Assembly (NCBI GenBank): GCA_965222075.1
Contig: OZ244937.1
Location: 1,376,001-1,440,000 of the forward strand
Direction of reading: 5' to 3'
Length of the DNA stretch: 64,000 bases
From: Candidatus Latescibacterota bacterium
GTDB lineage: Bacteria; Latescibacterota; UBA2968; GCA-2709665
The position numbers were made by a program, and so were the translations under genes. Numbering within the stretch: position 1 is the stretch's first letter; each line of letters starts with the position of its first letter. Under the pieces are notes generated by a model that searched no databases, was not told the origin of the DNA, and worked only from the letters and a program-made list of their open reading frames with translations. Shown in pieces: positions 10,550 through 64,000 of this stretch.

Positions 10550-10667
10550 CCACACATTCCTCCTGAAAATACACGTCTGGGCATCTGGTAACGTCCGGCG
10601 CTTCCGCACGTTAGAGGGGAGTGTTTATGCCCTGCGTTTTGTCTGCCCTGACCACCACCGCGAACAA

Positions 10668-10937
10668 TCAACCTCGAATGCCGAGCTTGTCGATCAGTTC
10701 CCGATAGCCACTCAGATTCCTCCGCTGCATGTACCTCATCAGACGGCGGCGCTGCCCGACCAGTTTGAGGAGACCGCGGCGGGAGTGGTGGTCTTTCTTG
10801 TGGGTTTGAAAATGCTCGGTTAAGTTGCGGATACGCTCTGTCAGCAGGGCGATCTGCGCCTCTGTGGAACCGGTATCTTCCGCCCTGCTGGAAAAGACTT
10901 CGATCAGTTCCGACTTCTTCTCCCTGGTTAATGCCAA
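10668..10937 (-). CDS. rpsO: 30S ribosomal protein S15
   Basis: [18 protein letters not shown]...[24 protein letters not shown] start after GGAGG gives 89 aa. Confidence 0.97.
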
Positions 10938-10941
10938 TGTT

Positions 10942-11895
10942 CTACCTCCGCAAAAGGGTTGTATCGACGTGTGATAACACATCCCGGGCGGCTTCCAGGT
11001 CGTTTTTTATCTGTGCGATCAGCGCGGCTGGGGTTTCAAACCGCTGCTCACCTCGAATCCGATGCACCAGTTCCAATGTGAGCCGTTGACCGTAGAGATC
11101 CCCCTCGAAACCGAGGAGATGAGCTTCCAGGGCGCGGGACCTGCCGTTGAATGTGGGACGATAGCCCAGGTTTAACACTGCGTCGCATCGATCCCCGGAC
11201 GGGAGATAGGCAAAGGCCGCATAGACCCCATCCGGAGGCATCAGCTTGCCCGGCTCCTCGATGGCCAGATTGGCCGTGGGAACCCCCAGCGTCCGACCCC
11301 GGCCATCCCCGCGCACGACCCGTCCGGCAACCGGATACCCACCTCCCAGGAGCCGACAGGCGGCTTCCAGATTTCCCTCTGTCACAAGCCGCCGGATGCG
11401 CGTACTGCTCACGGGTTTCCCATCGACCAGAACCGGCGGAACCGACCTGACTTCGAAACCGAAATCACGTCCCAAAGCCTGCATGGTCTCCAGGCCGCCG
11501 CTGCGGCCCTTCCCAAACCCGTGGTCATAGCCTACCACGACAACCTGCGCCTGCAGACGCCGAACCAGGTAGTCCTCAACAAACGCCTCCGGGCTTAACT
11601 CCCGCAGCGCCTGCGTAAAGGCCACAACCCCCAGCAGATCGATTCCCAGCGGGGCAACACGCCGCACCTTTTCCTCAAGCGAGGTGAGAATACCGGGGGC
11701 CTGCGTGGGGTCAATGATGGTCCGTGGATGGGGATCGAAGGTAGCCACCACCCCGGTTCCCTTCCGGGACGCAGCCTCGGCACAGACGGCTTCCAGGACG
11801 GCAACGTGTCCCAGGTGTACGCCGTCGCATTGGCCCACCGTTACCACGGGAGCAGGGAGGTCCAGAGGCGTCTCAAGGGTGATAATGCGCATCAT
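10942..11895 (-). CDS. ribF: Bifunctional riboflavin kinase / FAD synthetase
   Basis: [47 protein letters not shown] overlap with the truB stop. Confidence 0.94.
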
Positions 11896-46018: not shown

Positions 46019-49000
46019 ATGACCATCCCGACCATATTCGAGACATGCCGTCCACGCGCGGATGTTCTCAAGGGAGCGATTACCGAGGCCGATTTCGCGG
46101 CGGACCTGGCCCAGGTCATCACCGGCACGGGAAATGCCGAATATCTTGACCCGGCCCGTTTCTTCGCCAACACCTATCCCACAAGGGGCCTCAAGAACCT
46201 GCTCGCCAATGTCTGCCGACGGCTGACCGGTGCGGGCGGTGAAGTCGCATCTATTTTCCGGCTCGACACCTCCTACGGCGGCGGCAAGACCCACGGGCTG
46301 ATCGCGTTGTGCCATGCCGCACGCGGCATGCAGGGTGTGTCGGGTATTGCGGAATTTGTCGATCCCTCCCTCCTGCCGCAGAGCCACGTCCGCATCGCCG
46401 CCTTCGATGGCGAAAACGCCGATCCGGCCAATGGCCGGACGATGAAAGACGGTCTTCTCGCTTACACCCCCTGGGGCGAGATCGCTTATGCGCTTGCCGG
46501 CAAGGATGGGTATGCGCGGGTGCGCAAGAGCGATGAGAGTCGCATCGCGCCCGGCGCCGAGACCCTGCGTGAGCTGTTCGGCGGTGAGCCGGTGCTGATC
46601 CTGCTCGACGAGCTGTCGGTTTACCTGCGCAAGGTGCGCAATCTCGAAGATGCCCGCGATCAACTGACCGCGTTCCTGACCTCGCTGTTCAAGGCCGTCG
46701 AAAGCGCGCCTGACGCCGTCCTGGTCTATACACTGGCGATCGGCAAGGACGGGCGGGCGACCGACGCCTACAACGAAGAGAACCAGTTCATCGCCGACAA
46801 CATGGCGGAAGCGGAGAGTGTTTCCGCGCGCAAGGCAACGCTTTTGAACCCCACCGAGGAGGACGAAATGGTTCAAGTCCTCCTCCGCCGCCTGTTCGAG
46901 TCCATCGATGAGACGAGGGTTCCGGCCATCATCGATGCCTACCGGGATCGCTGGGCAGCCAACAGAGAGTCCCTGACTGGCGATGCCGCCCGCTCCGAGA
47001 CCGCCGAGACCTTCCGGTCGAGTTACCCGCTGCATCCGGACGTTCTGGAAACCCTGACCGGCAAGACGGCGACGCTCGGCAATTTTCAGCGAGTACGCGG
47101 CATGCTGCGGCTGCTGGCGCGCACGATCTCGCATCTTTGGGAGAAGAAGCCCAAGGATGCGACCGCGATCCATCTTCACCATATCGATCCCGGCTACGAA
47201 CCGATTCGTCAGGAGATCGTGACGCGCCTCGGGCAATCCGCCTACGTACCGGCCATTACCCACGATATCGCCGCCGGACCGGTCGAGAAGAAGGCACTGG
47301 CGCAGGAGATTGATGCCGGGCATCACGGCGGCATGCCACCGTATGCGGTCTACGTTGCCCGCACCATCTTCATGCACACGCTGGCCTTCAACGATCCGCT
47401 CAAGGGGATTTCGCCGGAGCAGCTGCGCTATTCGGTCCTGGGTCCCACAACGGACATCAGCTTTATCGAGGAGGCGCGCAAGAAGTTCATCTCCGAATCC
47501 GCCTACCTTGACGACCGCCCCGGCGCGCCGATGCGCTTTCTCGCCGAGGCCAATCTGCGCCAGATCATCCGCCGCGAGGAACACCACGTCGATGCCGGGG
47601 AAGCCCGCGCCGAGCTCAACGACTGCATCCGTGAGATATTTGGTGGCAAGACGTTCGAGACGGTGTCCTTTCCCGGGGGGCCGTTCGACGTTCCCGATGA
47701 GGTCGGCGACGGCCGGCCGAAGCTCGCCGTCCTGGCCTATGACGGCCTGACCATCGGTAGCTCGGTTGATGACGTGCCTGAGTTAATCGAGCGGATTTAC
47801 ACCCGGAAAGGCTCGGAGGGTTCGGCCTTGCGGGCGCTTCGAAACAATCTGGTATTCGTGGTCGCGGACGATGCCCGTAAGGAGGAGATGCATCGCAAGA
47901 CCTTTCATCGTCTGGCACTGCGAGAACTGAAAAAGCCGGAACGCCTCAGCGATCTGGCGGAGCACCAGCAGGCCCAGGTGCGTGAGATGGAAGCCCGATC
48001 CGAGCAGGAACTCGCGATCGCCATTCAACAGTGCTATCGGCACGTTTTCTACCCATCCCGCAACCGGGTTGGCGCGAGTGACGTCGACCTGGCCCATTCG
48101 GCGATCGACATCCATTCCACTTCCGATCGGCCTGGCGCGGGCCAGCAACAAATTGTGCGGGCATTATGCAACCTCAGTAAGCTGCGCCTGTCCGAGGACC
48201 AGCCGGACTCGCCCGCCTATGTGCGCGACCGCACACCGCTCAAGAAGGGTCAAATCACCACGCTGGCGCTGCGCGACGAGTTCAGGCGCGATCCTGCCCT
48301 CCCAATCCTGATTGGCGATGACATCTTCATTCGTGGCGTACGGCGCGGCATCGAGCAGGGCGAATACGTCTACCAACGCGGTGAGTTGCTGTTCGGACCG
48401 GGCGATCCGTCGGCCGGCATCATGATCGACGAGCAATCCGTGGTCTTCACCATGGCCTATGCGAAGAATACCGGCATCTGGCCACGGCAAAAGCCCGATG
48501 AACCCGCGCAGACGGAACCGGGTGGTGGGGAGCCGGGCTGGCGAGCCAAGTCGCCCGGTGGCGAGCCAGGCGCGAGCTTCGCCTCGGGGCCGGTTGGAGG
48601 CTATTCTGTCGGGAAGGCGCCCGGATCGTTGACCGCCGAGGGCGTTCTCAGAGAAGCATTGATCCAGTTGTGGGAGCAGGCCCGGGCGAAGGAAGTCGAG
48701 ACCATCGGGGTTTTGAACATCCGCATGTTCGAGGCAGGCGACGCCTTCCGGCTTTTCGGCGCCGTGGGCGCCGTATCCGGAGCAGAAAAGATCGTCACCC
48801 TCACGGGCGGCTACGAAACCCGTGAGGGTGGATCGTTCGAGTTGACGTTTCAGGGTCCGGTATCGGACGCCCAGCCGGTGAAGGAGTTTCTGGAACCCCA
48901 GCTTCGGGACGCAAGTTCCAGTAACCTCGAGGCGGGTTTCCAGTTGACCTTTGCCGAGGGGCTTTCCATGCAGGGCGACGCGGCGGAGAAGCTCACCGAG

Positions 49001-49063
49001 CGCCTTGCCCGGTTTGCGAGCGGGGCTGCCTACGTGTCGGCCACGGCGGAGGTCAAGGCTTAA
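46019..49063 (+). CDS. DUF499 AAA+ ATPase (BrxC-related; gene A of a restriction-like/BREX-related system)
   Basis: FAADL, FFANTYPT, SYGGGKTH Walker A, LILLDEL Walker B, SYPLHP, FQRVRG.LR. Confidence 0.9.
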   Translation: MTIPTIFETCRPRADVLKGAITEADFAADLAQVITGTGNAEYLDPARFFANTYPTRGLKNLLANVCRRLTGAGGEVASIFRLDTSYGGGKTHGLIALCHAARGMQGVSGIAEFVDPSLLPQSHVRIAAFDGENADPANGRTMKDGLLAYTPWGEIAYALAGKDGYARVRKSDESRIAPGAETLRELFGGEPVLILLDELSVYLRKVRNLEDARDQLTAFLTSLFKAVESAPDAVLVYTLAIGKDGRATDAYNEENQFIADNMAEAESVSARKATLLNPTEEDEMVQVLLRRLFESIDETRVPAIIDAYRDRWAANRESLTGDAARSETAETFRSSYPLHPDVLETLTGKTATLGNFQRVRGMLRLLARTISHLWEKKPKDATAIHLHHIDPGYEPIRQEIVTRLGQSAYVPAITHDIAAGPVEKKALAQEIDAGHHGGMPPYAVYVARTIFMHTLAFNDPLKGISPEQLRYSVLGPTTDISFIEEARKKFISESAYLDDRPGAPMRFLAEANLRQIIRREEHHVDAGEARAELNDCIREIFGGKTFETVSFPGGPFDVPDEVGDGRPKLAVLAYDGLTIGSSVDDVPELIERIYTRKGSEGSALRALRNNLVFVVADDARKEEMHRKTFHRLALRELKKPERLSDLAEHQQAQVREMEARSEQELAIAIQQCYRHVFYPSRNRVGASDVDLAHSAIDIHSTSDRPGAGQQQIVRALCNLSKLRLSEDQPDSPAYVRDRTPLKKGQITTLALRDEFRRDPALPILIGDDIFIRGVRRGIEQGEYVYQRGELLFGPGDPSAGIMIDEQSVVFTMAYAKNTGIWPRQKPDEPAQTEPGGGEPGWRAKSPGGEPGASFASGPVGGYSVGKAPGSLTAEGVLREALIQLWEQARAKEVETIGVLNIRMFEAGDAFRLFGAVGAVSGAEKIVTLTGGYETREGGSFELTFQGPVSDAQPVKEFLEPQLRDASSSNLEAGFQLTFAEGLSMQGDAAEKLTERLARFASGAAYVSATAEVKA

Positions 49064-49064
49064 A

Positions 49065-49541
49065 ATGGCGGGCCTGGAGAGAATCGCCCAGATCGAGACG
49101 CCGGACTCCGCGCCCCGGTACGAGTTGCGGGTGCGCCGTCACGGGCCGGCCAGTACCGAGTATGAAATCTGGCAGATGCCCGCGACAGCCACGCCGCAGG
49201 TCACATCACCGCTGCGTGTCGCGGGGCTTCGGGGCCGCAACCTCGAATTGGTGGAGCACCGGGTGCTGAAGCGGCTTTCTCGATCCGGCGTCAAGCCGGA
49301 GCGGAGCGTGGGCACCAGGAAGCGCGGCTATACCCTCACGGAAGATCTGGCGCTGACGCTGGGGCTGCTGTTCCGCACACTTGCCCCGATGCGCAGCCGC
49401 CACAACATGCGGGCGGTGGCCGAGGGCATCGAGGCCATGGGGCGCGAGGAGGCCGCCTACTGGCTCGGCATGGCGATGCACCGCCAGCATCCGCGCCGGG
49501 TGCTGGCGGCGTTGCGGTTCCTGCTGACTGAGCCGAAATGA
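49065..49541 (+). CDS. Small accessory gene B of the DUF499-DUF1156 system (DUF3780-position protein)
   Basis: Starts 1 nt after the DUF499 stop; LTEDLALTLGLLF...EEAAYW...ALRFLL. Family assignment is from position only. Confidence 0.7.
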   Translation: MAGLERIAQIETPDSAPRYELRVRRHGPASTEYEIWQMPATATPQVTSPLRVAGLRGRNLELVEHRVLKRLSRSGVKPERSVGTRKRGYTLTEDLALTLGLLFRTLAPMRSRHNMRAVAEGIEAMGREEAAYWLGMAMHRQHPRRVLAALRFLLTEPK

Positions 49542-50692
49542 TGAGCGGACAGGCTGGTATACAAAAGACACCGAGGGACGACGCCATGGAAACTCAACAA
49601 TCCGGTCGGCTAGCCGACGATGAACAAATCGAAGGCCTGGACCCCAAGAGCGAATCGTGGGGCGACTACCCCATTGACGACCTATTGATCCGGAACGAGA
49701 GTCGAACGATTTTCGATATCATCCGACGGATCAAGAAGGGCGACTATGTTATGAATCCAGACTTCCAGCGAGACTTCATCTGGCCGGAAGACAAGCAAAG
49801 CAAGCTGATCGAATCCGTGATCATGCGGATTCCCCTGCCGGTATTCTATTTGGCGGAAGATGACGAAGGGCGGATGGTGGTCGTGGACGGTTTGCAGCGT
49901 CTGATCACATTTCAAAGATTCGTGAAGGGCGATCTGAAGCTGCACCTACCCGACCGCGACGAACTCAATGGCAAAAAGTTCTCCGACCTCTCGTCCAAAC
50001 TCCAGAACCGTATTGAAGATTGCAATCTGATTCTTTACACCATTGACGCGAAGGTGCCGGAACGTACCCGTCTGGATATCTTCGATCGGGTGAATAGCGG
50101 TGAGCCGCTCACCCGGCAACAGATGCGCAACAGTCTGTTCATGGGACAGGCGACCCGCTTCCTGAAAGAGGAAGCACAGACCGATATTTTCCTTGAGGCA
50201 ACAGGCGAGAGTTTGAATTCAAAAAAAATGAGGGATCGGGAGTTCGTCAATCGATTTTGCGCCTTTCAACTCCTTGACCTTGATGTGTATCGCGGTGATA
50301 TGGACGATTTCCTTGCTACATGCCTGCGTAAAATGAATGAGATGGAAAACTCTGACCTATCGCGATTATCCGAAGAATTTCACAGGGGCCTTGCCAATAA
50401 CCTTGTGCTGTTTGGTCGGCACGCGTTCAGAAAACACACGCCGGAACAGGGATGGCGCAGTGTTCTTAATGCGTCCCTCTGGGATGTGATGTCTACCGGT
50501 TTGTCGCGTTACGCCGAAGACCGGGTCATGGAGTGCGCCGCGCCCCTTTGCCAAGCCGTCTATCGGTTGCTCGGTGACGAGGAGTTTGTCACTGCAATCA
50601 CTTATGGGCCGAACGGCGCCAGAAAGGTAAAACGCCGGTTCCAGATGACTCGGGGAAAATTTGAGGAGATCCTGGATGCTTACACGGATTGA
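49538..50692 (+). CDS. DUF262 (ParB/GmrS-like) protein, Menshen NsnA-like
   Basis: PDFQRDFIW, LIES, VVDGLQRL, IFDRVNSG motifs; ATGA overlap with gene B. Confidence 0.85.
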   Translation: MMSGQAGIQKTPRDDAMETQQSGRLADDEQIEGLDPKSESWGDYPIDDLLIRNESRTIFDIIRRIKKGDYVMNPDFQRDFIWPEDKQSKLIESVIMRIPLPVFYLAEDDEGRMVVVDGLQRLITFQRFVKGDLKLHLPDRDELNGKKFSDLSSKLQNRIEDCNLILYTIDAKVPERTRLDIFDRVNSGEPLTRQQMRNSLFMGQATRFLKEEAQTDIFLEATGESLNSKKMRDREFVNRFCAFQLLDLDVYRGDMDDFLATCLRKMNEMENSDLSRLSEEFHRGLANNLVLFGRHAFRKHTPEQGWRSVLNASLWDVMSTGLSRYAEDRVMECAAPLCQAVYRLLGDEEFVTAITYGPNGARKVKRRFQMTRGKFEEILDAYTD

Positions 50693-51842
50693 TCTGCGGC
50701 ATTTCAAATGCTTCGAAATGTTGAAGCTGCCGATGCGTCCGCTGACCCTGCTGTCCGGCGCCAATGCCTCCGGGAAATCGTCCGTGCTACAGGCACTTGT
50801 CCTGCTACATCAGACGATGCGCGAACAGGAATGGTCGACGCGCCTGATGCTCAACGGCGGCACCGTCCGGCTCGGCACCGTAACCGACGTGATCGATCAG
50901 GTTCACGGGCGCCGCGCTTGCGAGATCGCGTTGCTGGACGGTGATGAGGCGTATTTTCGATGGGAATTCGAGGGCGAACCCGATGAGATGTCGATGGCGG
51001 TGACGCACGTCTATGTCGATGGCGTTGACGGTCTCGACGTGGACGAATTCGAGCCGCTTCACTACTTACTGCCTCACCGCCTGCCGACGCCGTCGGGTGC
51101 CGAATCATTGACCGACCGTCTTCGTGGGCTCGCCTACCTGACCGCCGAGAGGCTGGGGCCGCGTGAGACCTATCCATTGGAGGATCCTCAGCATACGTCC
51201 GTCGTCGGTCCAAGGGGAGAACACGCAGTCAGCGTCCTGCACTCTGGCCGTGGCCTGCGTGTTCTGGACGGCTTGGCGATCGCGGGCGTACCGCCGACCC
51301 GGCTGCGGCAAGTTGAAGCACGTATGGGCCGCTTTTTCCCGGGTTGCGAGTTGATTGTCGATAAGATTCCTCAAGCCAACGCGGTAACTTTGGGAATTCG
51401 GACATCGAGGAGTACGGACTTCCATCGTCCGATTCATACCGGCTTTGGGTTGACGCAGGTCCTCCCAATCGTGGTGGCGGCCTTGTCCGCAGATAAGGGT
51501 GGCTTGCTACTGATCGAGAATCCGGAAGTACATCTCCACCCCGCCGGGCAAGCGGCGATAGGCGAATTTCTCGCCGAAGTCGCGGCTGTGGGCGTGCAGG
51601 TCATTCTCGAGACGCATAGCGACCACGTGTTGAACGGCATTCGGCGGGCCGTCAAGAAAAGGGGTTTGGCTCCCGACGATGCCGCCCTGCACTTCTTTCG
51701 ACTGCGGCAGGATGATGAACAGGAGGGTGCTGTGCAGGTGGCAAGCCCGATCCTGGACCGCGACGGCAATGTCGACATGTGGCCGGAGGGATTTTTCGAC
51801 CAGTTCGACAAGGACATGAATTATTTCGCCGGCTGGAGTTGA
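50676..51842 (+). CDS. AAA_21/ABC ATPase with DUF3696 C-terminus, Menshen NsnB-like
   Basis: GANASGKSS, GFGLTQVLP, IENPEVHLHP, ETHSDH, WPEGFFDQ. Confidence 0.87.
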   Translation: MLTRIDLRHFKCFEMLKLPMRPLTLLSGANASGKSSVLQALVLLHQTMREQEWSTRLMLNGGTVRLGTVTDVIDQVHGRRACEIALLDGDEAYFRWEFEGEPDEMSMAVTHVYVDGVDGLDVDEFEPLHYLLPHRLPTPSGAESLTDRLRGLAYLTAERLGPRETYPLEDPQHTSVVGPRGEHAVSVLHSGRGLRVLDGLAIAGVPPTRLRQVEARMGRFFPGCELIVDKIPQANAVTLGIRTSRSTDFHRPIHTGFGLTQVLPIVVAALSADKGGLLLIENPEVHLHPAGQAAIGEFLAEVAAVGVQVILETHSDHVLNGIRRAVKKRGLAPDDAALHFFRLRQDDEQEGAVQVASPILDRDGNVDMWPEGFFDQFDKDMNYFAGWS

Positions 51843-51843
51843 C

Positions 51844-52806
51844 ATGGAATTCTTCGCCAACGACCTGTCGATTCACGGACAATTCTACGACATACCTTTG
51901 TTTCGCGATGCGCTTGCGCGGCTGATGGCCATGCGCAACGCAGCCCGGCGCTTCGGTCGGCAGGTGTATTGCCATCGAGCGTTCACGAGTGTCGAGCCGA
52001 TCCCAGACGTGCCGATGCAGCAAGCAGTGCAGCGTCTTAAGAAGGACGAGCAACGGTCCGTGATGAGTTGGCTAACGAAGGGCGGGCCGTTCTGGGACGA
52101 TCTTCGCAAGCATGGCCCAGCCGACTGGCTGGAATGCCGGGGCGAGGTGGTTACGGATTCCGCCGTGGGGGAAGCGGCGTATCGAAAATTGCATGCCATC
52201 GAATGCGGTCTGGTCAGCGTCACACCGTCCAATTGGGACTTCTCGCCTGTGGCGGTGACTTGGCGACGGGAGGCAGAAGGATTAGAAGACCAGCACACAG
52301 ACCTCGACAACTGGCGAGACGCCTTCACGCTGGAAGAAATGCTGCGCGATGCAGCGCCGCCAATTCGGTCATGGGACGATTTACAAGATTCCTCGACGAA
52401 CCGGTTCAGGAGCCTGACGTTCGCTGGCGACTGCTTCAAGCCGCTTGTAGGGATTCCGTTCTCCGAGAGCGCAGCGGACCGCATCCTCTTCCTACTCGGC
52501 ATTCTGGATCAATTCGCACGTGCCTTCGACGCGGACGGTGCGCGGACATCCGAAGGCCATGGGATTTACCAGAACTACTTTACAGGCGGCGAGAATGCGT
52601 TGTTTTCGGACTCATCACCCCGGGAGAAGCGCAATTTCCGTAATGAATTGACCTTTCCTTACCCGGAGAGTCCTGAAAAGTCCTTGTGCTGCACCTGGCA
52701 TGGCAAGGAGCGTCACATGATGCTTCGCCTGCACTTCTCCTGGCCCATCCAATCCGGCAAGCCGGTTTACGTCGTATATGTCGGCCCTAAGATCACCAAG
52801 CGGTAA
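51844..52806 (+). CDS. Hypothetical protein, putative effector (NsnC position), C-terminus RelE-like
   Basis: Third gene of the coupled trio; WHGK...RLHFSWP...VYVVYVGPK tail resembles RelE/ParE-type folds (inference). Confidence 0.6.
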   Translation: MEFFANDLSIHGQFYDIPLFRDALARLMAMRNAARRFGRQVYCHRAFTSVEPIPDVPMQQAVQRLKKDEQRSVMSWLTKGGPFWDDLRKHGPADWLECRGEVVTDSAVGEAAYRKLHAIECGLVSVTPSNWDFSPVAVTWRREAEGLEDQHTDLDNWRDAFTLEEMLRDAAPPIRSWDDLQDSSTNRFRSLTFAGDCFKPLVGIPFSESAADRILFLLGILDQFARAFDADGARTSEGHGIYQNYFTGGENALFSDSSPREKRNFRNELTFPYPESPEKSLCCTWHGKERHMMLRLHFSWPIQSGKPVYVVYVGPKITKR

Positions 52807-52836
52807 GGCGACGATGACAACCACGGAACGAGACAC

Positions 52837-53070
52837 ATGCCCGACACCCGCCTGATCGAACGATGGCTGCCGATTGCCGAACTTGGCATCGAAAACACGC
52901 GTGAGCGGTGCCACCTACTTGTCGGCCAAGGCGGGGGTCAAGGCTTAAAATGGTGTGGCTATACCCTCACGGAAGATCTGGCGCTGACCCTAGGGTTGCT
53001 GTTCCGCGCGCTTGCTCCGATGCGCAGCCGCCACAATATGCGGGCGGTGGCCGAGGGCATCGAGGCCATG
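52837..53070 (+). pseudogene. Mosaic scar 1: DUF1156 5' end + DUF499 3' end + gene B fragment
   Basis: 52837-52908 encodes MPDTRLIERWLPIAELGIENTRER. 52914-52953 matches 49029-49068 (37/40). 52957-53070 matches 49326-49439. Confidence 0.9.
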
Positions 53071-53099
53071 CGCCGACGGCTTCGGAGAGGACGGATAAC

Positions 53100-53792
53100 A
53101 TGAGGATCGAGCCGGAGATCAGCGGCGTGAATGTCGTTTTGCTTGGGGATTTCAACCCTGCGATCTTCACACCTGCCTGGTTTGCGCTGCACGGCCTCCT
53201 GTCGGAGAGTGTCACAGACAGCGCAGATTTGCAGGTCGCCCACCAGCAGGTGACAGACTTTGTCGCTGACTGGCTTAGCCTGCAGGTCACGACCGAACGT
53301 TTTTCCGTCGGAACCTTGCAGGCGCCCTATATTCGCCTGCGCGATCTCGTCGCACGGATATTCAAAGAGCACCTGCATCATACGCCCCTCAGAGCGTTCG
53401 GCATCAACCGTTTCGTTCATTTTCAGGTGCAGAGTTTGAATGAGCGGGATCGAATCGGTAGAACACTGGCGCCGGTGGAACCGTGGGGAGCCTGGGGGCA
53501 CGACCTTGGGGTGAATGGCGAGCATGGCGGCATGACATCGCTGACGATGTCGCAAGTCGCCCCCCAGGGAAGGCCAACGGGTGGTCAGATCAACGTCACG
53601 GTGGAGCCGTCCAAACAGATTGGCAAGGGGCGAACTGGAGTTTACGTTCGGGTCAACGATCACTATGCCATCGACAATGCCGAGTTGGGAACTGCCGGAC
53701 GCTTAATGCAACTTTTCGAGGACAACTTCGATACGTCACTCAAACGTAGCGACGGTATCGTTGATCACATCATGTCCTTGGCAAAGACATAA
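53100..53792 (+). CDS. Hypothetical protein (possibly TIGR04255-like), gene 1 of cargo 2
   Basis: GGAGAGG RBS; VVLLGDFNPAIFTPAWF, AFGIN, VNDH. The family guess is tentative. Confidence 0.65.
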   Translation: MRIEPEISGVNVVLLGDFNPAIFTPAWFALHGLLSESVTDSADLQVAHQQVTDFVADWLSLQVTTERFSVGTLQAPYIRLRDLVARIFKEHLHHTPLRAFGINRFVHFQVQSLNERDRIGRTLAPVEPWGAWGHDLGVNGEHGGMTSLTMSQVAPQGRPTGGQINVTVEPSKQIGKGRTGVYVRVNDHYAIDNAELGTAGRLMQLFEDNFDTSLKRSDGIVDHIMSLAKT

Positions 53793-53805
53793 GGAGGTTT
53801 AGTTC

Positions 53806-54411
53806 ATGTTGCAGGCGGCTCAATCCACAGCGGCGCAGCACGCCAATGCGCGTGAAAGGCTCAGTGATTTCGATGAAGATGACGCGCGGGAGTACCTCGT
53901 TCAGAATGCGGACCAACCTGTCCGCTTGTTGTTAGAGCAGGGAGTGGGCTCTCCGACAACAAGTGTACACGACCAGGATATGGAAGGGATGACTATGCCG
54001 GCGTTCGCAGGTCGTGAACAGGACGCCGACAATTTCTCGTGGATTGTGAACTTGCCGCAGCCGCGACCACACCGGTCGCCGCCAGTGACTTTCCACGCCT
54101 TACAAGAGTGGGAAGGCTATGTCACTGAGATAAACGACATGGAATTTACTGCAAGCCTGACCGACCTGACGGCTGGGGCGACCTTTGCGGGAGAAGAAGC
54201 GGATATCCCTATAGACGAAATATTAGAAGCTGATGCCGCTAAAATGCAGGTCGGGAGTATCTTCCGCTGGGTGATCGGCTACGAGCGCACGGCGGGATCG
54301 AAAAAGCGGGTCTCCCATATCGTGTTCCGCGACCTTCCCGCGATTACCAGGACCGACCTGCGGGATGGCGAGGAATGGGCGCATAAAATCATGGCGACTT
54401 TCGAGCAGTGA
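53806..54411 (+). CDS. Hypothetical protein, gene 2 of cargo 2
   Basis: AAGGAGG RBS; C-terminal beta-rich domain LQEWEGYVTEI...GSIFRWVIGY. Confidence 0.65.
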   Translation: MLQAAQSTAAQHANARERLSDFDEDDAREYLVQNADQPVRLLLEQGVGSPTTSVHDQDMEGMTMPAFAGREQDADNFSWIVNLPQPRPHRSPPVTFHALQEWEGYVTEINDMEFTASLTDLTAGATFAGEEADIPIDEILEADAAKMQVGSIFRWVIGYERTAGSKKRVSHIVFRDLPAITRTDLRDGEEWAHKIMATFEQ

Positions 54412-55502
54412 CAGAAACCAGAAAAGCGGGCAACCCGCCAGGCGAGGATGAGTTTGAGGTCGTGTTGCTTGGCCCTGGCTACGGCGAGAGCATCGTCCTG
54501 CATGTAGGCTGCGGCGGCTGGGTAATCGTTGATTCCTGCATCAACGTCGAAGGGAAACCACGTGCCCTGGAGTATCTCGAAAGCATCGGCGTCAACCCGG
54601 CGGAAGCCGTTGATCTGGTTGTGGCGACTCACTGGCACGACGACCATATACGCGGGATAGCAAAGCTGGTCGAAGCCTGCAGAAAGGCCGATTTCTGTTG
54701 TGCCAATGCGCTTCTCAACAAAGAGTTTCTCGCTGCCGTTGATGCTTTGGAGGGTCGCCACCTTTCCGCGGACGGTTCAGGAGTTCGTGAGATTTACCGC
54801 GTATTCACCTGGCTTGAGTCCGCGGCGTCACGTCCCACGTTCGCTCTATCCAACCGACGCGTCCATGCCCGAGGCAAGTGTGAAATCTGGTCATTGTCGC
54901 CCGATGACACCGCCTTTAAGAACTTCCTGAAATCTGTTGGCAATCTGTTCCCCGGCGAAGGCCGGACAAAGACTCGGCTTCCACCCGTTGCTCCCAACGA
55001 TATTGCGGTCGCGCTGTGGGTCGGCGTTGATGATATTGTGGTACTGCTTGGTTCGGATCTGGAAAAGCGTAGTTGGGTAGAGATTCTACAGAGTGAGGAG
55101 CGGCCGACCAGCAAGGCGTCGGTGTTTAAGGTTCCGCACCACGGAGCGGAAAGCGCCCATGAACCGGAGGTATGGAAGCGGATGCTCGCGCCCGATCCGT
55201 TCGCGGTACTCACGCCCTGGCGCAGAGGCGGCCGTGCGTTGCCGAGCCAAGACGATGTACAGCGCATTCTCTCGCACACCAAAAACGCCTACGCCACCGC
55301 GAAAGCTGGTCCGGCTGCTCAATCCCCGAGATACGCTAACCGAACAGTTGCCCGAACCATTCGCAGTACCGGCATCGAACTTCGGCGGCTCGCGATGTCG
55401 CCCGGCGCGATTCGACTACGGTGCCTGATCGGTTCTCGGGCACCCTGGAAGGTCGAGACCTTCGGAACCGCCTGCCATCTCAAGGACCTCGCCGGGTTAT
55501 AG
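54408..55502 (+). CDS. Metallo-beta-lactamase-fold (ComEC/Rec2-like) hydrolase, gene 3 of cargo 2
   Basis: GYGESI, IVDSC, THWHDDHIRG (HxHxDH), LGSDL, KVPHHG; GTGA overlap. Confidence 0.85.
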   Translation: MTETRKAGNPPGEDEFEVVLLGPGYGESIVLHVGCGGWVIVDSCINVEGKPRALEYLESIGVNPAEAVDLVVATHWHDDHIRGIAKLVEACRKADFCCANALLNKEFLAAVDALEGRHLSADGSGVREIYRVFTWLESAASRPTFALSNRRVHARGKCEIWSLSPDDTAFKNFLKSVGNLFPGEGRTKTRLPPVAPNDIAVALWVGVDDIVVLLGSDLEKRSWVEILQSEERPTSKASVFKVPHHGAESAHEPEVWKRMLAPDPFAVLTPWRRGGRALPSQDDVQRILSHTKNAYATAKAGPAAQSPRYANRTVARTIRSTGIELRRLAMSPGAIRLRCLIGSRAPWKVETFGTACHLKDLAGL

Positions 55503-55524
55503 ACCATTTGCTCATGGTGTGAAC

Positions 55525-55725
55525 GTGGATTTGAACCGATGTCCGACACCCGCCTGATCGAACGCTGGCTGCCGATCGCCGAGCTTGGCATCGAAAGTAC
55601 GCGCGAGCGGACGCCCAGCCGGTGAAGGGATTTTTGGAACCCCAGCTTCGGGACGCAAGTTCCAAGAACCTCGAGACGGGTTTCCAGTTGACCTTCGCCG
55701 AGGGGCTTTCCATGCAGGGCGGCGC
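55525..55725 (+). pseudogene. Mosaic scar 2: HNH-gene tail + DUF1156 5' end + DUF499 near-3' fragment
   Basis: 55525-55541 is identical to 61378-61394. 55539-55610 encodes MSDTRLIERWLPIAELGIESTRER. 55608-55725 matches 48864-48981. Confidence 0.9.
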
Positions 55726-55951
55726 TACTCGCCCAGAGCGGCCTCACGGGTCCTCTTGAGATTGCCAATTCCCCAATAATATTGTTTGCAACAAGTTCGT
55801 TGGAAAGGGCACGATTATGGGGATAGAAAGCAGGGGCGAGCTGGGTCAAGCGGATCGGTTCTTCGGCTCAGGGAAGCGCGAAGCCGTGGCATCGAGTAGG
55901 GAGAAGGTGGTGAACCCCGCAACCCCACAGCCGTGCAGCCGGACCGGAAGG

Positions 55952-55980
55952 ATGTGCGACCCACGGCTGATCGAGCGGCG
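55952..55980 (+). pseudogene. Highly degenerate DUF1156 5' fragment
   Basis: ATGTGCGACCCACGGCTGATCGAGCGG encodes MCDPRLIER (compare MSDTRLIER), preceded by GGAAGG. Confidence 0.55.
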
Positions 55981-56323
55981 ACCTACAGATAGCCTACAGA
56001 TCCTAACCGAAGCCCGGATCCACCAGAAGTATCGACACTTGGCCGGACGGATTTTTGGATCAGTTCGATGTCTCCTCAGTGCGGCGTTCTCTGTGCGCGT
56101 GAATGGCAGTTATCTTACTCATTAACCTCAATACGACAATAATTCAGCGGCAAAGTCGTTCGCGGATCAGAAATACAGCCTTAGGGGCCATTCGAACGCT
56201 CATTTTTACAGGTCGCACTTGGCGGCTTTGAGATTTCCTGATATGGGACCCCAAGCGCGCGATATTCATCGAACCAAATCCGAGTTCGGGTAGCCAAAAT
56301 ATGTCGGATCAAGGTTAATCGCT

Positions 56324-58978
56324 ATGTCTGATTATGATTTCGCGCAGTATCTTAAGATTCTTAATTCAACGAAGTTTCAGCATCTCTGGCCGGCGCAGAA
56401 GCACATCCTGGACGCCTATGACACTGACTTTCTGGACGTCAGGGACGTCGGTATTGAGCTTCCAACCGGGGCCGGAAAAACACTGATTGCGTTGCTCATT
56501 GGAAGCAAGTGGCTTGATTACGGGAAGAAGGTTGTCATTTTGTCGGCGAACAAGACCCTTGCTCGCCAGATGCGTGATGAGGCCACAGTACTTGGGCTAC
56601 CGGTAGCGTACATGGAAGGACGCGGCGAAGATATTCCGGCTGCAAGTCGTCGCTCTTACCAGCGCGCAAAGAAAATCGGGATCATGAATTATTGGGTTTA
56701 TTTCAACCAAAACCCAGTGGTCGACCCTTCAGATCTTGTAGTGATGGACGACGCGCACTTGGCGGAGCATTGCCTGGATTCGCTTTATTCCATCATCATC
56801 AGCCGGAAAGACCATAAATATCTCTTCGAGCAGCTCATACGTGAGCTTCACGATCGCTTCCCCGACTATGCTATCTTGGCAGACGCGGCTACGGCTAATG
56901 CACCACCGAACACTTCGACAGAGCTTCTGTCGTTCATCGATCACGCTGAGATCGTCGAGCGCCTCAAAGAAAATATCGACGCATCTCCGTTAATGACTTC
57001 GGATAGCGACCTGTGTTTTCGCTGGCACCGTCTCCGGGCACAAATTCATCTTACGAATTTCTATATTGGCCGCGATGCACTCTGGTTGCGTCCATACATC
57101 TATCCGCTCATTAGCAACGAACAATACCGACACACCAAACAGGTGCTCTATATGAGCGCCACAATTGGAGATCCAGGGGACTTGGCACGTCGTTTGGGAA
57201 CTCGACCAATCCGAAAGATCCAGGTTCCGGCGCAGTTCGCGGACCGCAGTTCCGGTAGACGTCTTATCGTGATGAACAGGACGAATGACGACTCGGACAT
57301 TCCGCGTCGGATGGCCCTTGCGCTCCACAATGCCATAAGTACGCATCCCAAAAGCGTTTGGCTTTGCGCGAGTGAACACGAGGCAATCCAACTCTGCGAA
57401 GTAGTTGCGGGGTGGCTTGAAACAAACAACCATGTCGGCCACCCAACATGGATTCTGACGCCCCTCGGAGATGAGATTGATCAATTCCGTCGGGCACCCT
57501 CAGGCCATCTTTTCGTGGCCGGACGCTTTGATGGAATGGATTTCAGTGGCGATGAGTGTCGGATCGTTGTTCTGAGCACGATGCCGAGGGCCATTAACCT
57601 CCAGGAGGAATTCATTTCGAGCTATCTGCGCGACAGCGGTTTCATGCGCAGGCGACTGAACCAACGGGTCGTTCAAGGTCTTGGGAGATGCACGAGGACT
57701 GACGATGATTTCGGAGTCTACTTCTTGGCCGATCAGCGATTTGCTACACACTTCTCTCGCGAATCCAACCGGGAGGGGATTCCGCAACACATGGCAGCAG
57801 AGCTAGATCTCGCCCAAGATCTAGCTGAGCGAGAAGAAAATGACCTTGCGAAGTACGTTACGCAGTTTCTGCATGGCGATTTCACCACCTACGATGTTGA
57901 CCTCGCGAAACTCAACGAAGATACTCCACCGCCGATAAGCGGTAATTTGGTAGGCGCCGACACGTCCAAGGACGAAGTAGTCGGTTGGTCCGCATTGTTT
58001 GAGAGCGAAAATTTCGCGGTTGCGCAGCAACGTTTTGAGCGATGCTGGGACACCGCCAAAGAAGACAACAATCTCCGAGAAATTACGGCTCTACATGGAT
58101 GGCATCGAGCTAAGGCGCTGTATCTTGAAGGTCTTCGCGGAAACCAGGTTTCTGTGGACAGAGCGCTTCACGTGCTGGAAGAGTCGATTGAACGCGGAGG
58201 ACTAAGCTCCTGGTTCAACCGGATGCGAGGCTCGCTCAATCGTGCTCGCAACCACAGTATAGCCACCGAAAGCATTGTCCAGCAGGAATATGGGGAATCA
58301 ATTATCCATGGTTTTGACGAACGTCTCGAGCGCCTCGGGACAACAGGACCCAAGTTTCAAGAATTCGTGAATCACCTCAGAGCAAGGCTGGAATCGGGAA
58401 CTCACGCAGAATATCAGGAAGCCTTGGAGGACCTCGGAACTCTACTCTGTTACCGGGCACGACGGCCCAAATTCGGCGCATCACCCGATTGTGTGTGGCG
58501 CGGCGAGTTCGGCAACTCTCGGGAAATTTTTACTTTCGAGGTGAAGGTTGAACAGGAGCCTTCACATCCAATCACCACCACCCACCTAGGTCAGGCTCAC
58601 ACACAGCACAGCTGGGCCAAACAGAAATATGGTATGCAGGGCTATTCAGTTCGGGCCCTAATAGTCACCCATCTTGACCAATTGGCTCCCGATGCTCAAT
58701 CATCTGTGGAGCCGATCAAACTTCTTCATAAGGACGTCGTCCTGGCGCTTTGGACCCGTGTTTGTGACATCATGACCACGTATCGCTCTCTCTGGAATAT
58801 CGATGACATTCAGGCGAAGAGAACAGCAGCAACGGCTATCAGACCGCGACTTCCCAAGACTGGCTGGTTTCTCCGGGCGTTGGATCGTGCGGCCCCATGG
58901 CTTTCTGAGGCTGATGTGCTGAAGGAATGGGACGTGGCAAGACCTGCGCCCGTGTACCCGGATCGGAAAGATGTCTGA
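56324..58978 (+). CDS. SF2 (DinG/XPD-like) helicase with C-terminal PD-(D/E)xK nuclease, Hna-like
   Basis: LPTGAGKT, MDDAH, MSAT, FDGMDF...CR, QGLGRCTR; C-terminal PDCVW...FEVK. Confidence 0.82.
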   Translation: MSDYDFAQYLKILNSTKFQHLWPAQKHILDAYDTDFLDVRDVGIELPTGAGKTLIALLIGSKWLDYGKKVVILSANKTLARQMRDEATVLGLPVAYMEGRGEDIPAASRRSYQRAKKIGIMNYWVYFNQNPVVDPSDLVVMDDAHLAEHCLDSLYSIIISRKDHKYLFEQLIRELHDRFPDYAILADAATANAPPNTSTELLSFIDHAEIVERLKENIDASPLMTSDSDLCFRWHRLRAQIHLTNFYIGRDALWLRPYIYPLISNEQYRHTKQVLYMSATIGDPGDLARRLGTRPIRKIQVPAQFADRSSGRRLIVMNRTNDDSDIPRRMALALHNAISTHPKSVWLCASEHEAIQLCEVVAGWLETNNHVGHPTWILTPLGDEIDQFRRAPSGHLFVAGRFDGMDFSGDECRIVVLSTMPRAINLQEEFISSYLRDSGFMRRRLNQRVVQGLGRCTRTDDDFGVYFLADQRFATHFSRESNREGIPQHMAAELDLAQDLAEREENDLAKYVTQFLHGDFTTYDVDLAKLNEDTPPPISGNLVGADTSKDEVVGWSALFESENFAVAQQRFERCWDTAKEDNNLREITALHGWHRAKALYLEGLRGNQVSVDRALHVLEESIERGGLSSWFNRMRGSLNRARNHSIATESIVQQEYGESIIHGFDERLERLGTTGPKFQEFVNHLRARLESGTHAEYQEALEDLGTLLCYRARRPKFGASPDCVWRGEFGNSREIFTFEVKVEQEPSHPITTTHLGQAHTQHSWAKQKYGMQGYSVRALIVTHLDQLAPDAQSSVEPIKLLHKDVVLALWTRVCDIMTTYRSLWNIDDIQAKRTAATAIRPRLPKTGWFLRALDRAAPWLSEADVLKEWDVARPAPVYPDRKDV

Positions 58979-59319
58979 CACCCGCCTGATCGAACGATGG
59001 CTGCCGATTGCAGCTCTTGGAGAAGAGAGTATTCGCGAGCGACGTTCCATGACGGCGTTGCCGCCCACCTATCATCTCCATGTCTGGTGGGCACGGCGTT
59101 TCTCGCCACCCTGCTGCCCGCGGAGGATGATCTGGAGAGGTGTCCGCAGATCCTTGGGATTCATGGAGATCCATTGGCAGCAATAGAATTGACCGAGCAA
59201 AAAGGGCGGGAGTCGCGGTGAATAATCCCTCTCGCTACACCCTCAGGGAAGATCTGGCGTTGACGCTGGGGCTGCGGTTCCTGCTGGCCGATTCGAGGCC
59301 GAGGGAGGCTCGCCCATGA
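58971..59319 (+). pseudogene. Mosaic scar 3: internally deleted DUF1156 5' end + two joined gene B fragments
   Basis: MSDTRLIERWLPIAALGEESIRERRSMTALPPTYHLHVWWARR, near-identical to 61392 onward. 59234-59274 matches 49327-49367, fused to the LRFLL 3' end of gene B, whose TGA overlaps the next ATG. Confidence 0.9.
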
Positions 59320-60635
59320 AACTAAAGTCTGTGGAAATCGAAAACTACCGGGCGATCGAGAAACTTGAGTTGGCACTCGATCCGTCGCTAACGGTTTTTC
59401 ATGGCGACAATTCGCACGGCAAGACCAGTGTTCTGAGCGCTATTGCCGTCGGTTTGGGGGCGGTTCCTTTCTTGCTGCCGGATGTGTCGGGGATTGGATT
59501 CCTCAAGAAGGACCGCCGCGAGGGTGGTGAATGCGTGCGGGTTTCGCTTACTACGACCAATGAAATTACATGGGAACGAACATCGAGCTATGTACGAAAA
59601 AGTAGGTGGACTCTAAGTGAGGATACAGCCCAAGAACGCCAAGAACGGCCCCGTCATACCTTAAGGGAGTTGAAGCAATGGCTGGAGAAGACTGCACTTG
59701 CTGCTTGGGGAACACCTATCGATCTACCGATAATGGCCTTCTATGACACGGAAAGGGTGGTACGGGGTCTCGCGAAACGACGCGGCCGCCCAAAGAGCGC
59801 GATTTCTCGGTATGCTGCGCTGGAAGGCGCACTGTCTGCACGGACTAGCTTTAGGGAGTTGTTTGAGTGGTTCTACATAAAGGAGAACGAAGAACTGAGG
59901 GAACAGCGAGAAAGGCGCGACCTTGACTTTCGCTTGAAAGAACTGACTGCGGTACGCGATGCGATTTCATCCATGATTGATTGCATTGCCGAACCTCACG
60001 TCGAGCTTCGTCCAATGCGCTTTGTGGTATCCGAGAGATTAGACGGGGAGGCCGCTGAAAAACGAACGCTTGACCAGTTGAGTGGCGGCTGTCAAGCCGT
60101 ACTTGCACTTGCCGCTGATTTGGCTTGGCGGATGGCCCAGGGAAACCCTCATCTCGACGACACGCTCTCCTCCGAAGCAATCGTCCTGATTGACGAGATC
60201 GAACTGCATTTACACCCCTCATGGCAGCAACGCATCCTGGGCGACCTGCGGCGGACATTCCCAAACGCGCAGTTTATCGTCTCTACTCACAGCCCGCAGG
60301 TGCTGACTACGGTCGAGCCGCAGCACATTGTGGAACTGTATCGGGATGGCGACCGCATTGTTGCCGGGGCACCAGGGGGGGCGACTTATGGGGCCGAGGC
60401 AGGAGACGTTCTTTCCGTGGTGATGGGTGTAGATGAGCGACCGCCCGAGAACCGCTTCACAAAAGCTTTGGACCAATACCGGCGGCTGATCAGGGAGGAG
60501 CGGTGGGAGTCCAAAGAAGCCTTGGCTCTGCGAGAGAGTCTGGAGAGCATGTCCCCCTACGATTCGGCCCTTGATCGCGCCGACCTTGAGATCAAGCGGC
60601 GCAAGCTATTCAAGCAGCGGGCCGAGTCACAATGA
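59316..60635 (+). CDS. AAA_21/ABC ATPase, Septu PtuA-like
   Basis: IENYRAI, GDNSHGKTS, QLSGG, VLIDEIELHLHPSWQ, QFIVSTHSPQV. Confidence 0.85.
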   Translation: MKLKSVEIENYRAIEKLELALDPSLTVFHGDNSHGKTSVLSAIAVGLGAVPFLLPDVSGIGFLKKDRREGGECVRVSLTTTNEITWERTSSYVRKSRWTLSEDTAQERQERPRHTLRELKQWLEKTALAAWGTPIDLPIMAFYDTERVVRGLAKRRGRPKSAISRYAALEGALSARTSFRELFEWFYIKENEELREQRERRDLDFRLKELTAVRDAISSMIDCIAEPHVELRPMRFVVSERLDGEAAEKRTLDQLSGGCQAVLALAADLAWRMAQGNPHLDDTLSSEAIVLIDEIELHLHPSWQQRILGDLRRTFPNAQFIVSTHSPQVLTTVEPQHIVELYRDGDRIVAGAPGGATYGAEAGDVLSVVMGVDERPPENRFTKALDQYRRLIREERWESKEALALRESLESMSPYDSALDRADLEIKRRKLFKQRAESQ

Positions 60636-61387
60636 AGATCATCCGCGAATTGAAAACGCCCACTTCCGGCCTTGCCGAATATCTCGATGCCGTGGACGAC
60701 GACGCGAATTGGGTCGAATTCCGCTCTCACGATTCGGGAGCGTCTTACCACGAACTCAGGGATGCCCTGACCCATAGCCAACACGGGCTTTGCGCGTACT
60801 GCGAGATGGTGATCGATGAGTGGCGTCGTCAGGTCGAGCATGTGATCCCGCAGAGCGATGACGGATTAGGTAAAGTGAAAGCCCTCGACATAGCCAACAT
60901 GGTCGCCTGCTGCAAGGGTGGAATCGTGCAGGATGGTGATGAGGATCATTATCGTAGGCCAGTGAGACACACCATGAGTTGTGGTCAGGCAAAGGGAAAT
61001 CAGATTGACGAAAATTTTATTGACCCCCGTACACTACCTGCGTTGCCATCGCTTGTGAGGGTGGTTGATAACGGGCTGATTGAAGCAGACGAAAATGCCT
61101 GCGAAAGGGCCTGTTTTCTTCCCGACCATGTAACCCGCACCATTGAGATTCTGAACCTCAACGCGGAACGGCTCCGGTTGCAGCGGGAGAAGCGGTGGAA
61201 TGGTCTTGAGGAAGAGTCCGGACAAATTGATGATCCGGACAATCCAGATATGATGAATACCTGGATACGCTCTGTGCTGACGCCGGATGAGAACGACCGG
61301 TTGGATCCCTTCTTCACCACTACCCGGTCGTACTTCGCCCCGTTGGGCGAAGGCATCCTGGCAGAAGAACCCCAAAAGTGGATTTGA
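60632..61387 (+). CDS. HNH endonuclease, Septu PtuB / TIGR02646-like
   Basis: QHGLCAYCE, VEHVIPQ, NMVACC, SCG..K, TIEILNLN; ATGA overlap with the ATPase. Confidence 0.85.
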   Translation: MKIIRELKTPTSGLAEYLDAVDDDANWVEFRSHDSGASYHELRDALTHSQHGLCAYCEMVIDEWRRQVEHVIPQSDDGLGKVKALDIANMVACCKGGIVQDGDEDHYRRPVRHTMSCGQAKGNQIDENFIDPRTLPALPSLVRVVDNGLIEADENACERACFLPDHVTRTIEILNLNAERLRLQREKRWNGLEEESGQIDDPDNPDMMNTWIRSVLTPDENDRLDPFFTTTRSYFAPLGEGILAEEPQKWI

Positions 61388-61391
61388 ACCG

Positions 61392-64000: not shown

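Follow-up and report, generated by a model that had tools for sequence, protein, structure and literature searches.

Scaffold-gene remnants mark the joints between defence cassettes in a DUF499-DUF1156 operon of a Latescibacterota bacterium

The genome of Candidatus Latescibacterota bacterium (assembly GCA_965222075.1, contig OZ244937.1) is represented by one 5.36-Mb contig. The stretch analysed here, referred to as the window, is 64,000 nucleotides (nt) of this contig (positions 1,376,001 to 1,440,000 of the forward strand; G000:C1:1376001-1440000). At its right end lies an intact four-gene restriction-modification-like operon of type 2 among the systems related to bacteriophage exclusion (BREX), variously called MANTIS-like, Gao_RL or ‘Hma’. 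Its genes, termed A to D, form a scaffold whose B-C slot measures 11,850 nt. Four cassettes in this slot are intact and share one orientation, and at least two others have left debris there. Between the cassettes lie short pieces of the scaffold genes themselves, written dA, dB and dC below, and the order and sources of these pieces offer a means to ask how defence genes enter such an operon and accumulate within it.

The scaffold genes are identified by matches to protein family models. Gene A encodes a DUF499 AAA+ ATPase (Pfam DUF499, E 3e-38; PADLOC HmaC, 9e-97, and DUF499, 5e-40), with full-length counterparts of 80-82% amino acid (aa) identity in the family-level relatives G016, G017 and G021. 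Gene C, encoding a DUF1156 N6-adenine methylase, matches Pfam DUF1156 (5e-15) and N6_N4_Mtase (1.5e-4) and PADLOC HmaB (2e-68) and DUF1156_MTase (9e-47); its true start is at 61392, as against 61287 in the list of open reading frames (ORFs). Gene D combines PLDc_2 (7e-7, residues 134-200), SNF2-rel_dom (8e-23) and Helicase_C (4e-18) domains and matches PADLOC PLD_Helicase (5e-75); a BCCT transporter gene comes after it. The small B protein belongs to Pfam DUF7680 (4e-44) and gave no match to DUF3780 in the Pfam profile search even at E<=10. Its AlphaFold model (pLDDT 84) has four strands and five helices, the count that PMC12839542 gives for DUF3780, and neither sequence nor fold searches returned a relative in the PDB. 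In the four public runs that were consulted (Logan contigs from three studies), segment 62753-63386 of C has a word depth of 297-812, compared with 10-200 nearby; a near-identical methylase segment must therefore be common to many community members.

The domain set and gene order are those given in PMC12839542 for type-2, DUF499-centred BREX-related systems. They also correspond, here from the genes alone, to those of MANTIS/Gao_RL: a DUF499 AAA+ ATPase, a small protein, a DUF1156 N6-adenine methylase and a PLD/HKD plus SF2 helicase effector, in the same order. According to the MANTIS preprint (10.64898/2026.09.23.753747), the methylase hemimethylates DNA, for which the ATPase and the small protein are required, and restriction by the PLD-helicase requires all four proteins. 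The operon in the window differs in two respects from that system, since by sequence its small protein is DUF7680 rather than DUF3780 and 11.9 kb of defence genes separate B from C. It is because B is a DUF7680 protein without DUF3780 signal that the operon is named ‘MANTIS-like’. An initial annotation, made from the letters alone, had called it a BREX-related ‘restriction-like’ defence system, and both sources bear this label out.

The cassettes differ in how far they can be named (Table 1). By PADLOC, cassette 1 is predicted to be a Menshen system of three adjoining genes (NsnA 1e-111, NsnB 3e-101, NsnC 7e-114), and cassette 4 a Septu system in which PtuA, an ABC-type ATPase (9e-111), is followed by the HNH protein PtuB (4e-55). 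The PtuB stop lies 4 nt ahead of the C start codon, a spacing found in many related loci. Cassette 2 is assigned to no system by the PADLOC scan; its first two genes match no family in the Pfam scan, while the third matches Lactamase_B (2e-8) and encodes a metallo-beta-lactamase (MBL) fold. An apparent 294-aa ORF at 52908-53792 is a composite of scaffold remnant and the 230-aa gene that starts at 53100. The three genes of the module (~230 aa and ~200 aa, then ~360 aa for the MBL-fold protein) keep together elsewhere, at 8797-11204 of locus L020 and in the slots of L022, L027, L050, L063, L072, L074 and L080, and on one occasion beyond any Hma operon, in G018, where a remnant of B codons 1-58 lies ahead of them. 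On these sequence comparisons, cassette 2 is a candidate for an unnamed defence system.

Cassette 3 encodes an 884-aa helicase that had been described as Hna-like. This name was rejected: at E<=0.001, PADLOC returns PDC-S28 (1e-84, 5e-72) and typeIV_DinG (4e-27) and no Hna model, alongside Pfam DEAD and Helicase_C_2. Homology of this S28 helicase to its relatives stops at residue 869/870, and in alignment the last ~15 codons are the 3' end of gene 2 of another cassette, here called X. S28 therefore entered an existing cassette by an illegitimate event. Among 167 other genomes of the phylum there are five matches to S28, three of them at 73-75% identity, and the scaffold genes are absent from the 20 kb fetched around these three nearest homologues.

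Cassette X is a pair of STAND-like NTPases, one of 420-530 aa (AAA_16/AAA_22) and one of ~1250 aa (AAA_16 plus TPR repeats), to which the PADLOC scan assigns no system. It is intact beside C in L037 (11050-15820), L040 (13377-18392), L042, L052 (14103-17918) and other loci, and is present in this window as debris alone (55826-55977 and 58935-58970). The first of these two stretches falls in the ~700-nt gap before S28 (field 55726-56323), which has a G + C content of ~0.50-0.54; the array has no other long non-coding gap. A sigma-70-like match is present in the gap at 55756-55785, from a promoter/terminator scan that was at chance level overall (9 found against 7.3±3.1, and 15 against 17.1±5.4); the gap may carry an internal promoter.

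Table 1. Scaffold genes, cassettes, remnants and junctions of the array, in window coordinates (J, junction; nt positions within A and B are those of the intact genes).
Feature	Position	Strand	Description
A, DUF499 AAA+ ATPase (HmaC / MtsA-like)	46019-49063	+	intact, 1014 aa
B, small DUF7680 protein (MtsB position)	49065-49541	+	158 aa
Cassette 1, predicted Menshen	49538-52806	+	NsnA 49538-50692, NsnB 50661-51842, NsnC 51844-52806
J1 = dC1/dA1/dB1	52837-53103	+	88-aa open frame; stop overlaps 53100 ATG of cassette 2
dC1	52837-52908	+	C codons 1-24, protein E 3e-6
dA1	52903-52953	+	A 49018-49068, 87-88% (A nt 3000-3045 = last 46 nt, plus stop and B ATGG)
dB1	52957-53070	+	B 49326-49439 (B nt 262-375, codons 88-125), 94%
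Cassette 2, unnamed three-gene module	53100-55502	+	230 aa 53100-53792; 201 aa 53806-54411; MBL-fold 364 aa 54408-55502
J2 = dC2/dA2	55539-55725	+	C codons 1-24 joined to A nt 2846-2963
dC2	55539-55610	+	C codons 1-24, protein E 6e-7
dA2	55608-55725	+	A 48864-48981 (A nt 2846-2963), 93%, E 9e-47
Remnant field	55726-56323	+	debris of cassette X and Nsn (blastn against 80 loci, alignment)
Cassette-X gene 1, 5' start	55826-55865	+	blastn against 80 loci
Cassette-X gene 2, 3' end, with dC start	55888-55977	+	blastn against 80 loci
Degenerate dC trace	55931-55977	+	79% over 47 nt against 58950-58996, E 2.9e-4
NsnB 3' trace, 39 nt	56031-56069	+	blastn against 80 loci
Cassette 3, PDC-S28, DinG-like helicase	56324-58978	+	884 aa
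J3 = dC3/dB2	58971-59319	+	C to ~codon 90 (58971-59206), B ~codons 68-103 fused to 150-158 (59188-59296)
dC3	58971-59099	+	C codons 1-43, 95% aa, 91% nt, E 1e-26; diverged to ~codon 90 at 59206
dB2	59234-59281, on to ~59296	+	B nt 263-310, 92%
Cassette 4, predicted Septu	59316-61387	+	PtuA 59316-60635, PtuB 60632-61387
C, DUF1156 N6-adenine methylase (HmaB / MtsC-like)	61392-64370 (ends beyond window)	+	992 aa
D, PLD+SNF2 helicase	64373-67540 (outside window)	+	1055 aa

The remnants were located by a repeat search, by self-blastn of 45-70 kb, and by tblastn and blastn searches of the slot in which genes A to D were the queries. They comprise three copies and one trace of the C 5' end, two copies from the last 200 nt of A, and two from B, in repeats of 48-129 nt that are 79-94% identical and far beyond chance (E 1e-9 to 1e-46 for the copies, 2.9e-4 for the weak trace). 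Every copy of a scaffold gene that the initial annotation had named between the cargos exists, with dA1 starting at 52903 instead of 52914, and so does the degenerate trace of C that it had placed near 55952. At J1, the C piece runs to GCGAGCG, a sequence present at the breakpoint in both parents, C and A; there follow the last 46 nt of A, the stop, the ATGG of B, and a jump to B codon 88. At J2, C joins A nt 2846 after the same GAGCG, with 2 nt (CG) in common. The B copy of J3 carries an internal deletion between two similar 11-mers, CTGC(T/G)GTTCC. Coupling between stops and starts is retained across these joints. The B stop overlaps the NsnA ATG (49538-49541), the stop of the J3 remnant ORF overlaps the PtuA ATG (59316-59319), and the S28 stop (58976-58978) lies over the dC ATG at 58971. 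These couplings at 49538, 58971 and 59316, noted earlier, can be read directly in the sequence, and a further one had been missed, in which the stop of the 88-aa ORF (52837-53103) lies over the ATG at 53100. Open remnant frames of this kind, with their stop over the next ATG, may pass ribosomes from cassette to cassette.

The sources of the remnants are restricted. In tblastn and blastn searches of the slot they were limited to A nt 2846-3045, to B, and to C nt 1-227, and pieces of D or of the interiors of A and C were absent. Across 54-57 related loci, these source stretches are nucleotide-conserved blocks bordering the slot, with 65-91% column identity, which falls to 31-58% just past C nt 240. 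Within these blocks the breakpoints vary: dC ends at codons 24, 24 and ~90 in the window and at codons 17-65 in other loci, while dB starts anywhere from codon 18 to codon 142. The B remnants also display several successive internal deletions.

Since the scaffold genes are widespread, it might be supposed that the array is an assembly chimera, stitched from community members with common scaffold genes. Public runs do cover the scaffold genes many-fold deeper than the cargos, so many organisms carry near-identical scaffold stretches. However, the genome is a single contig, and repeats as short and as diverged as those in the slot are unsuited to mislead long-read assembly. Contigs of run X1 match 55646-56395 and 58069-59006 with 0 differences, although X1 is perhaps the source sample and so not independent. 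Like remnants are also present in the separately assembled loci G016/L049, L026, L052, L056, L061 and L067, and a chimeric origin is scarcely credible. Contig joints at 49477->55536 (X4, X6) and 49484->59472 (X4) were not used, as their sides are 23-28 letters long and most likely derive from B-C or B-Septu operons of other organisms. A contig of run X3, likewise not used, corresponds to 55545-56990 with 4 differences and carries 883 upstream letters off the window, which hints that in another sample a different cassette lies upstream of dC2.

Integron arrays are made up of co-oriented, closely packed and mostly promoterless modules, the number and order of which vary between relatives. The modules in the slot are also co-oriented, tightly packed, apparently promoterless, and variable in number and order, features that would suit a dedicated site-specific system located outside the window, either an integron-like integrase with attC-type sites or a transposon, that inserts the cassettes. 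According to PMC11232893, 19.1% of hmaA homologues have phage integrases no more than 10 genes away. The surroundings of the array and its boundaries speak against such a system. Tyrosine recombinases (PF00589, the family searched for IntI) gave seven matches genome-wide, none within 700 kb of the array, and serine recombinases (PF00239) gave 0 matches in the genome; the earlier remark that no integrase was in view thus holds well beyond the window. The operon is flanked by housekeeping genes (folE, aldolase and RtcB upstream; BCCT, a TonB receptor and YchF downstream). An inverted-repeat search of the five cassette boundaries found no common element, attC-type sites included. Breakpoints differ from one junction to the next, and neither a conserved recombinase co-occurring with arrays nor one fixed junction sequence was seen in the loci examined. 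A site-specific origin is very improbable. Since each boundary consists of flanking-gene pieces that vary from case to case, any mobility of the cassettes would depend on general recombination.

The wider distribution of the slot was surveyed using a profile of four B proteins, which recovered 80 loci with 10-kb flanks from public genomes. B is 65-89% identical at the aa level in metagenome-assembled genomes (MAGs) labelled Acidobacteriota, Gemmatimonadota/Longimicrobiales, Binatia, Latescibacterota, Alpha- and Gammaproteobacteria, and Entotheonella, at least six phyla or classes, and the loci therefore represent one operon spread across phyla. The B-C distance ranges from 17 nt to 8,734 nt in the 58 of 80 loci with C in view, which supports the proposal of the initial annotation that the B-C slot is a cargo hotspot; the L030 slot is ~10.9 kb, and that of the window is the longest seen. 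Empty slots occur in L086, L035, L087 and L021. L038 and L068 carry Menshen and nothing else, L023, L058, L081 and L095 carry Septu alone, and seven loci (L063, L072, L074, L080, L027, L022 and L050) carry cassette 2 alone. Single-cargo relatives had been predicted for each of the four modules, and they exist for these three, whereas none of the 80 slots contains S28. Several cargos are combined in, among others, L026, L030, L033, L049 (=G016), L051 (=G017), L052, L056, L061, L067, L069, L078 and L084. All tblastn matches to the window's cargo proteins in the 80 loci are on the scaffold strand. Further slot contents are AbiL-like/PDC-M38, PDC-M68, Qat, an RT-nitrilase DRT, other reverse transcriptases (RTs), methylases and recurrent unknowns. 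Cassette number differs among relatives, another early expectation, and so does cassette order, as seen in the family-level relatives G016, G017 and G021. Some genomes hold more than one copy of the system: two operons with different cargos are present in one record (L068/L074) and in one MAG (L039/L063), and G062 holds ~8 DUF1156 genes.

Cargo turnover can be viewed against the phylogeny of the scaffold. When the cargo beside C was mapped on C trees of 34 loci, 17-18 changes were required, compared with 19.6±1.5 in shuffles, which is no phylogenetic signal and fits fast turnover. Linkage between the cargo and the C 5' flank was also null, at 18 changes against 19.6±1.5 shuffled, no better than the distal part of C.

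Scaffold remnants are not peculiar to this genome. The query proteins for each slot were A 3', B and C 5', taken both from the locus in question and from this window. A filter of >=50% identity, after removal of two cases that involved the locus's own C (L043, L085), left 16 loci; L093 and L045 fail the filter and were kept on E values of 7e-19 and 1.6e-10, so that remnants are counted in 18 of 80 related loci. Remnants become more frequent with slot length, from 0/10 in slots below 1.5 kb to 4/28 at 1.5-4.7 kb and 10/20 at >=4.7 kb. In a reversed-sequence control over the same 386,664 nt, all matches were below 50% identity with E >= 1.75e-6, and weak ‘dA’ tblastn matches below 50% identity were dropped as noise on this basis. 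The remnants always come in the same order. After a cassette stands a C 5' piece, and ahead of the next cassette stands a B 3' piece, at times together with the end of A. For example, a junction of G016 comprises dC, ~60 nt of the A end and B codons 118-158, with breakpoints that differ from those of the window. By alignment, G017/L051 has J2 with both breakpoints, ahead of its Nsn cassette; in this window, 3' of J2, Nsn survives as the NsnB 3' trace alone.

These data bear directly on the route that the initial annotation had put forward, in which several copies of the whole system, carrying different cargos, became integrated in tandem through homology and the redundant C-(D)-A-B cores were deleted later. 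A plasmid or island entering by single crossover would be one possible source of such copies, with its backbone among the deleted sequence. The ingredients of this route are at hand. Single-cargo operon variants exist, two operons with different cargos can share one genome, the successive internal deletions in B remnants demonstrate that erosion is real, and L045 carries an internal A fragment (codons 116-242) within its array, the sole such case in the 80 loci. The expected by-products are missing, however. The slot of the window has no remnant of D or of the A and C interiors, no plasmid or island backbone remnant was seen, and a tandem whole-core intermediate, with C-D-A-B between cassettes, was found in 0 of 80 loci. 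L029, with Nsn genes after D, was considered as such an intermediate and rejected, as its genome has one C. Moreover, junction end-points lie no more than ~270 nt from the C start and ~205 nt from the A end, despite a deletable core of 9.6 kb. Tandem integration of whole systems is accordingly unlikely, and this part of the earlier reading was not borne out.

A second array in the same genome, located by DUF1156 and DUF499 searches, follows the same remnant rule with different genes. At this locus, G000:C1:5220733-5256348 (L110, L009, L111), inserted genes extend a type-1 Hma operon of SNF2+NOV_C helicase, methylase and DUF499 genes to a length of 36 kb. The inserts include an AAA_15/21 pair, a PHP-SMC-like ATPase, a Schlafen/AlbA protein, a transposase (DDE_5), HEAT and DUF5677 proteins, SIR2-HerA, an SDH protease and an AAA_21 protein. 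Here a piece of the methylase (codons 1-99, 90% nt identity over 281 nt) is followed directly by helicase codons 1106-1150 and then by SIR2, and farther upstream there are one more methylase 5' piece and one more helicase 3' piece. In the methylase-ATPase slot, two copies of the methylase 3' end lie ahead of its two cassettes. This locus has the form of the type-1 Halomonas hma hotspot of PMC11232893, down to an AAA_21 gene between hmaB and hmaC. Elsewhere in the genome, an orphan DUF1156 N-terminal fragment with 54% aa identity to the methylase of the second locus lies ~2 kb from tyrosine-recombinase fragments (G000:C1:699499-699744 and 697244-697616, both on the minus strand); this fragment may be what is left of a third copy that was mobile.

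The route favoured here over tandem integration of whole systems is entry by short flanks. It is preferred because random erosion of tandem operons should leave pieces of D and of gene interiors, and none was found in the slot of the window. On balance, we consider it probable, with considerable reserve, that operon variants gained cassettes from one another by recombination that combined short-flank homology with microhomology, and that the array then decayed by deletion; no dedicated recombinase would be needed. The anatomy of the operon and its remnants is a matter of observation; the route is inferred from their end products. Operon variants with different cargos have nucleotide-conserved flanks in common: to the left, the A 3' part and B (~900 nt together); to the right, the C 5' part (~240 nt). 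Incoming DNA of a variant would pair at one end by flank homology and join at the other by microhomology, through homology-facilitated illegitimate recombination or through single-crossover entry of a short circular piece. An [A 3' end-B-cargo-C 5' end] segment would thereby be added rather than exchanged, and each addition would leave the inter-cassette signature of a C 5' piece and then an A 3'/B piece. Later deletions between short direct repeats would trim the duplicate B copies and, at times, whole cassettes. The remnants would stay homologous to the live scaffold genes and hence available for further rearrangement.

Several observations weigh against entry by short flanks. The recombination events have to be read back from what they left behind. 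J1 and J2 have the same C breakpoint, and J2 is common to G017, and therefore some junctions were inherited or copied and the events are fewer than the remnants. C 5' flanks next to the same cargo do not group together, so at the divergence sampled there is no direct sign that flank and cargo travel jointly. Remnants are more easily detected where sequence is conserved, yet D and the catalytic region of C, also conserved, gave nothing. The same junction would also result if a tandem duplicate lost everything between C 5' and A 3' in one large deletion. Finally, S28 comes from no sampled operon variant and is embedded in what remains of cassette X; one capture at least was therefore purely illegitimate.

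An extension of short-flank entry gives the remnants a role as working parts. On either side of each cassette there is a piece, B (or A 3') on one and C 5' on the other, with homology to every operon of the family. General recombination would loop a cassette out as a circle, [dA/dB-cargo-C5'], which would reinsert by one crossover into B or C of the same or another operon, making the array an integrase-free, homology-driven counterpart of the integron that operates across phyla. The order in the window, B-Nsn-dC-dA-dB-cargo2-dC-dA-(Nsn trace), would be expected from entry of such a circle at B into a B-cargo2-dC-dA-dB-Nsn-C ancestor, a form that is still present in G016 and G017. This circle reading is possible, though doubtful.

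Hma and BREX-related loci are known hotspots for the insertion of defence genes. The Halomonas hma study (PMC11232893) describes insertions of Septu, PARIS, Ppl, AAA_21 pairs and GmrSD-like genes, reports that 66.5% of hma systems have insertions, and calls the region a hotspot. Those operons differ from the one in the window in being of type 1, with the NOV_C helicase first, and in the one or two inserted systems per operon that are listed for them; scaffold remnants between cassettes and a recombination route are not known from that study, supplementary tables aside. PMC12839542 describes ‘auxiliary and backup effectors’ inside BREX and BREX-related core loci of thousands of taxa, among them pairs of an OLD-family ABC ATPase and HNH protein (Septu type), GmrSD-like ParB/HNH and other nucleases. 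There the embedded genes are read as functionally integrated helpers, whereas here the cargo is unlinked to scaffold phylogeny and remnants mark exchangeable cassettes. The closest parallel to the remnants comes from P4 and P2 hotspots, where defence systems turn over fast between conserved core genes and many small intergenic pseudogenes resemble core genes (24% in P4, typically Ash), read as remnants of intense recombination (PMC13586616). Those hotspots sit in mobile satellites and prophages with integrases, in contrast to the chromosomal defence operon that is the frame here, and unlike theirs the present remnants have a regular order, a 5' piece of the downstream gene and then a 3' piece of the upstream gene. 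The ordered scaffold remnants between cassettes, the rule common to two operon types and the route inferred from them appear to be new, as searches of the literature on Hma/BREX loci and defence hotspots, supplements aside, returned no counterpart.

The nesting of defence genes in Hma and BREX-related operons has thus been published; the route of entry and stacking is not known to have been explained. The junctions described here keep readable remnants, which makes the route inferable and testable. The exchanged pieces appear to consist of a cargo together with short stretches of the neighbouring scaffold genes, and the same remnant rule is seen in two unrelated operon types of one genome and in loci of several phyla. 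The slot is also a practical place to seek new defence systems, such as the three-gene MBL module, the paired STAND/TPR ATPases and the recurrent unknowns. If the rule is general, a widely shared defence operon would serve as a docking frame, and ordinary recombination there would let unrelated bacteria exchange immune modules.

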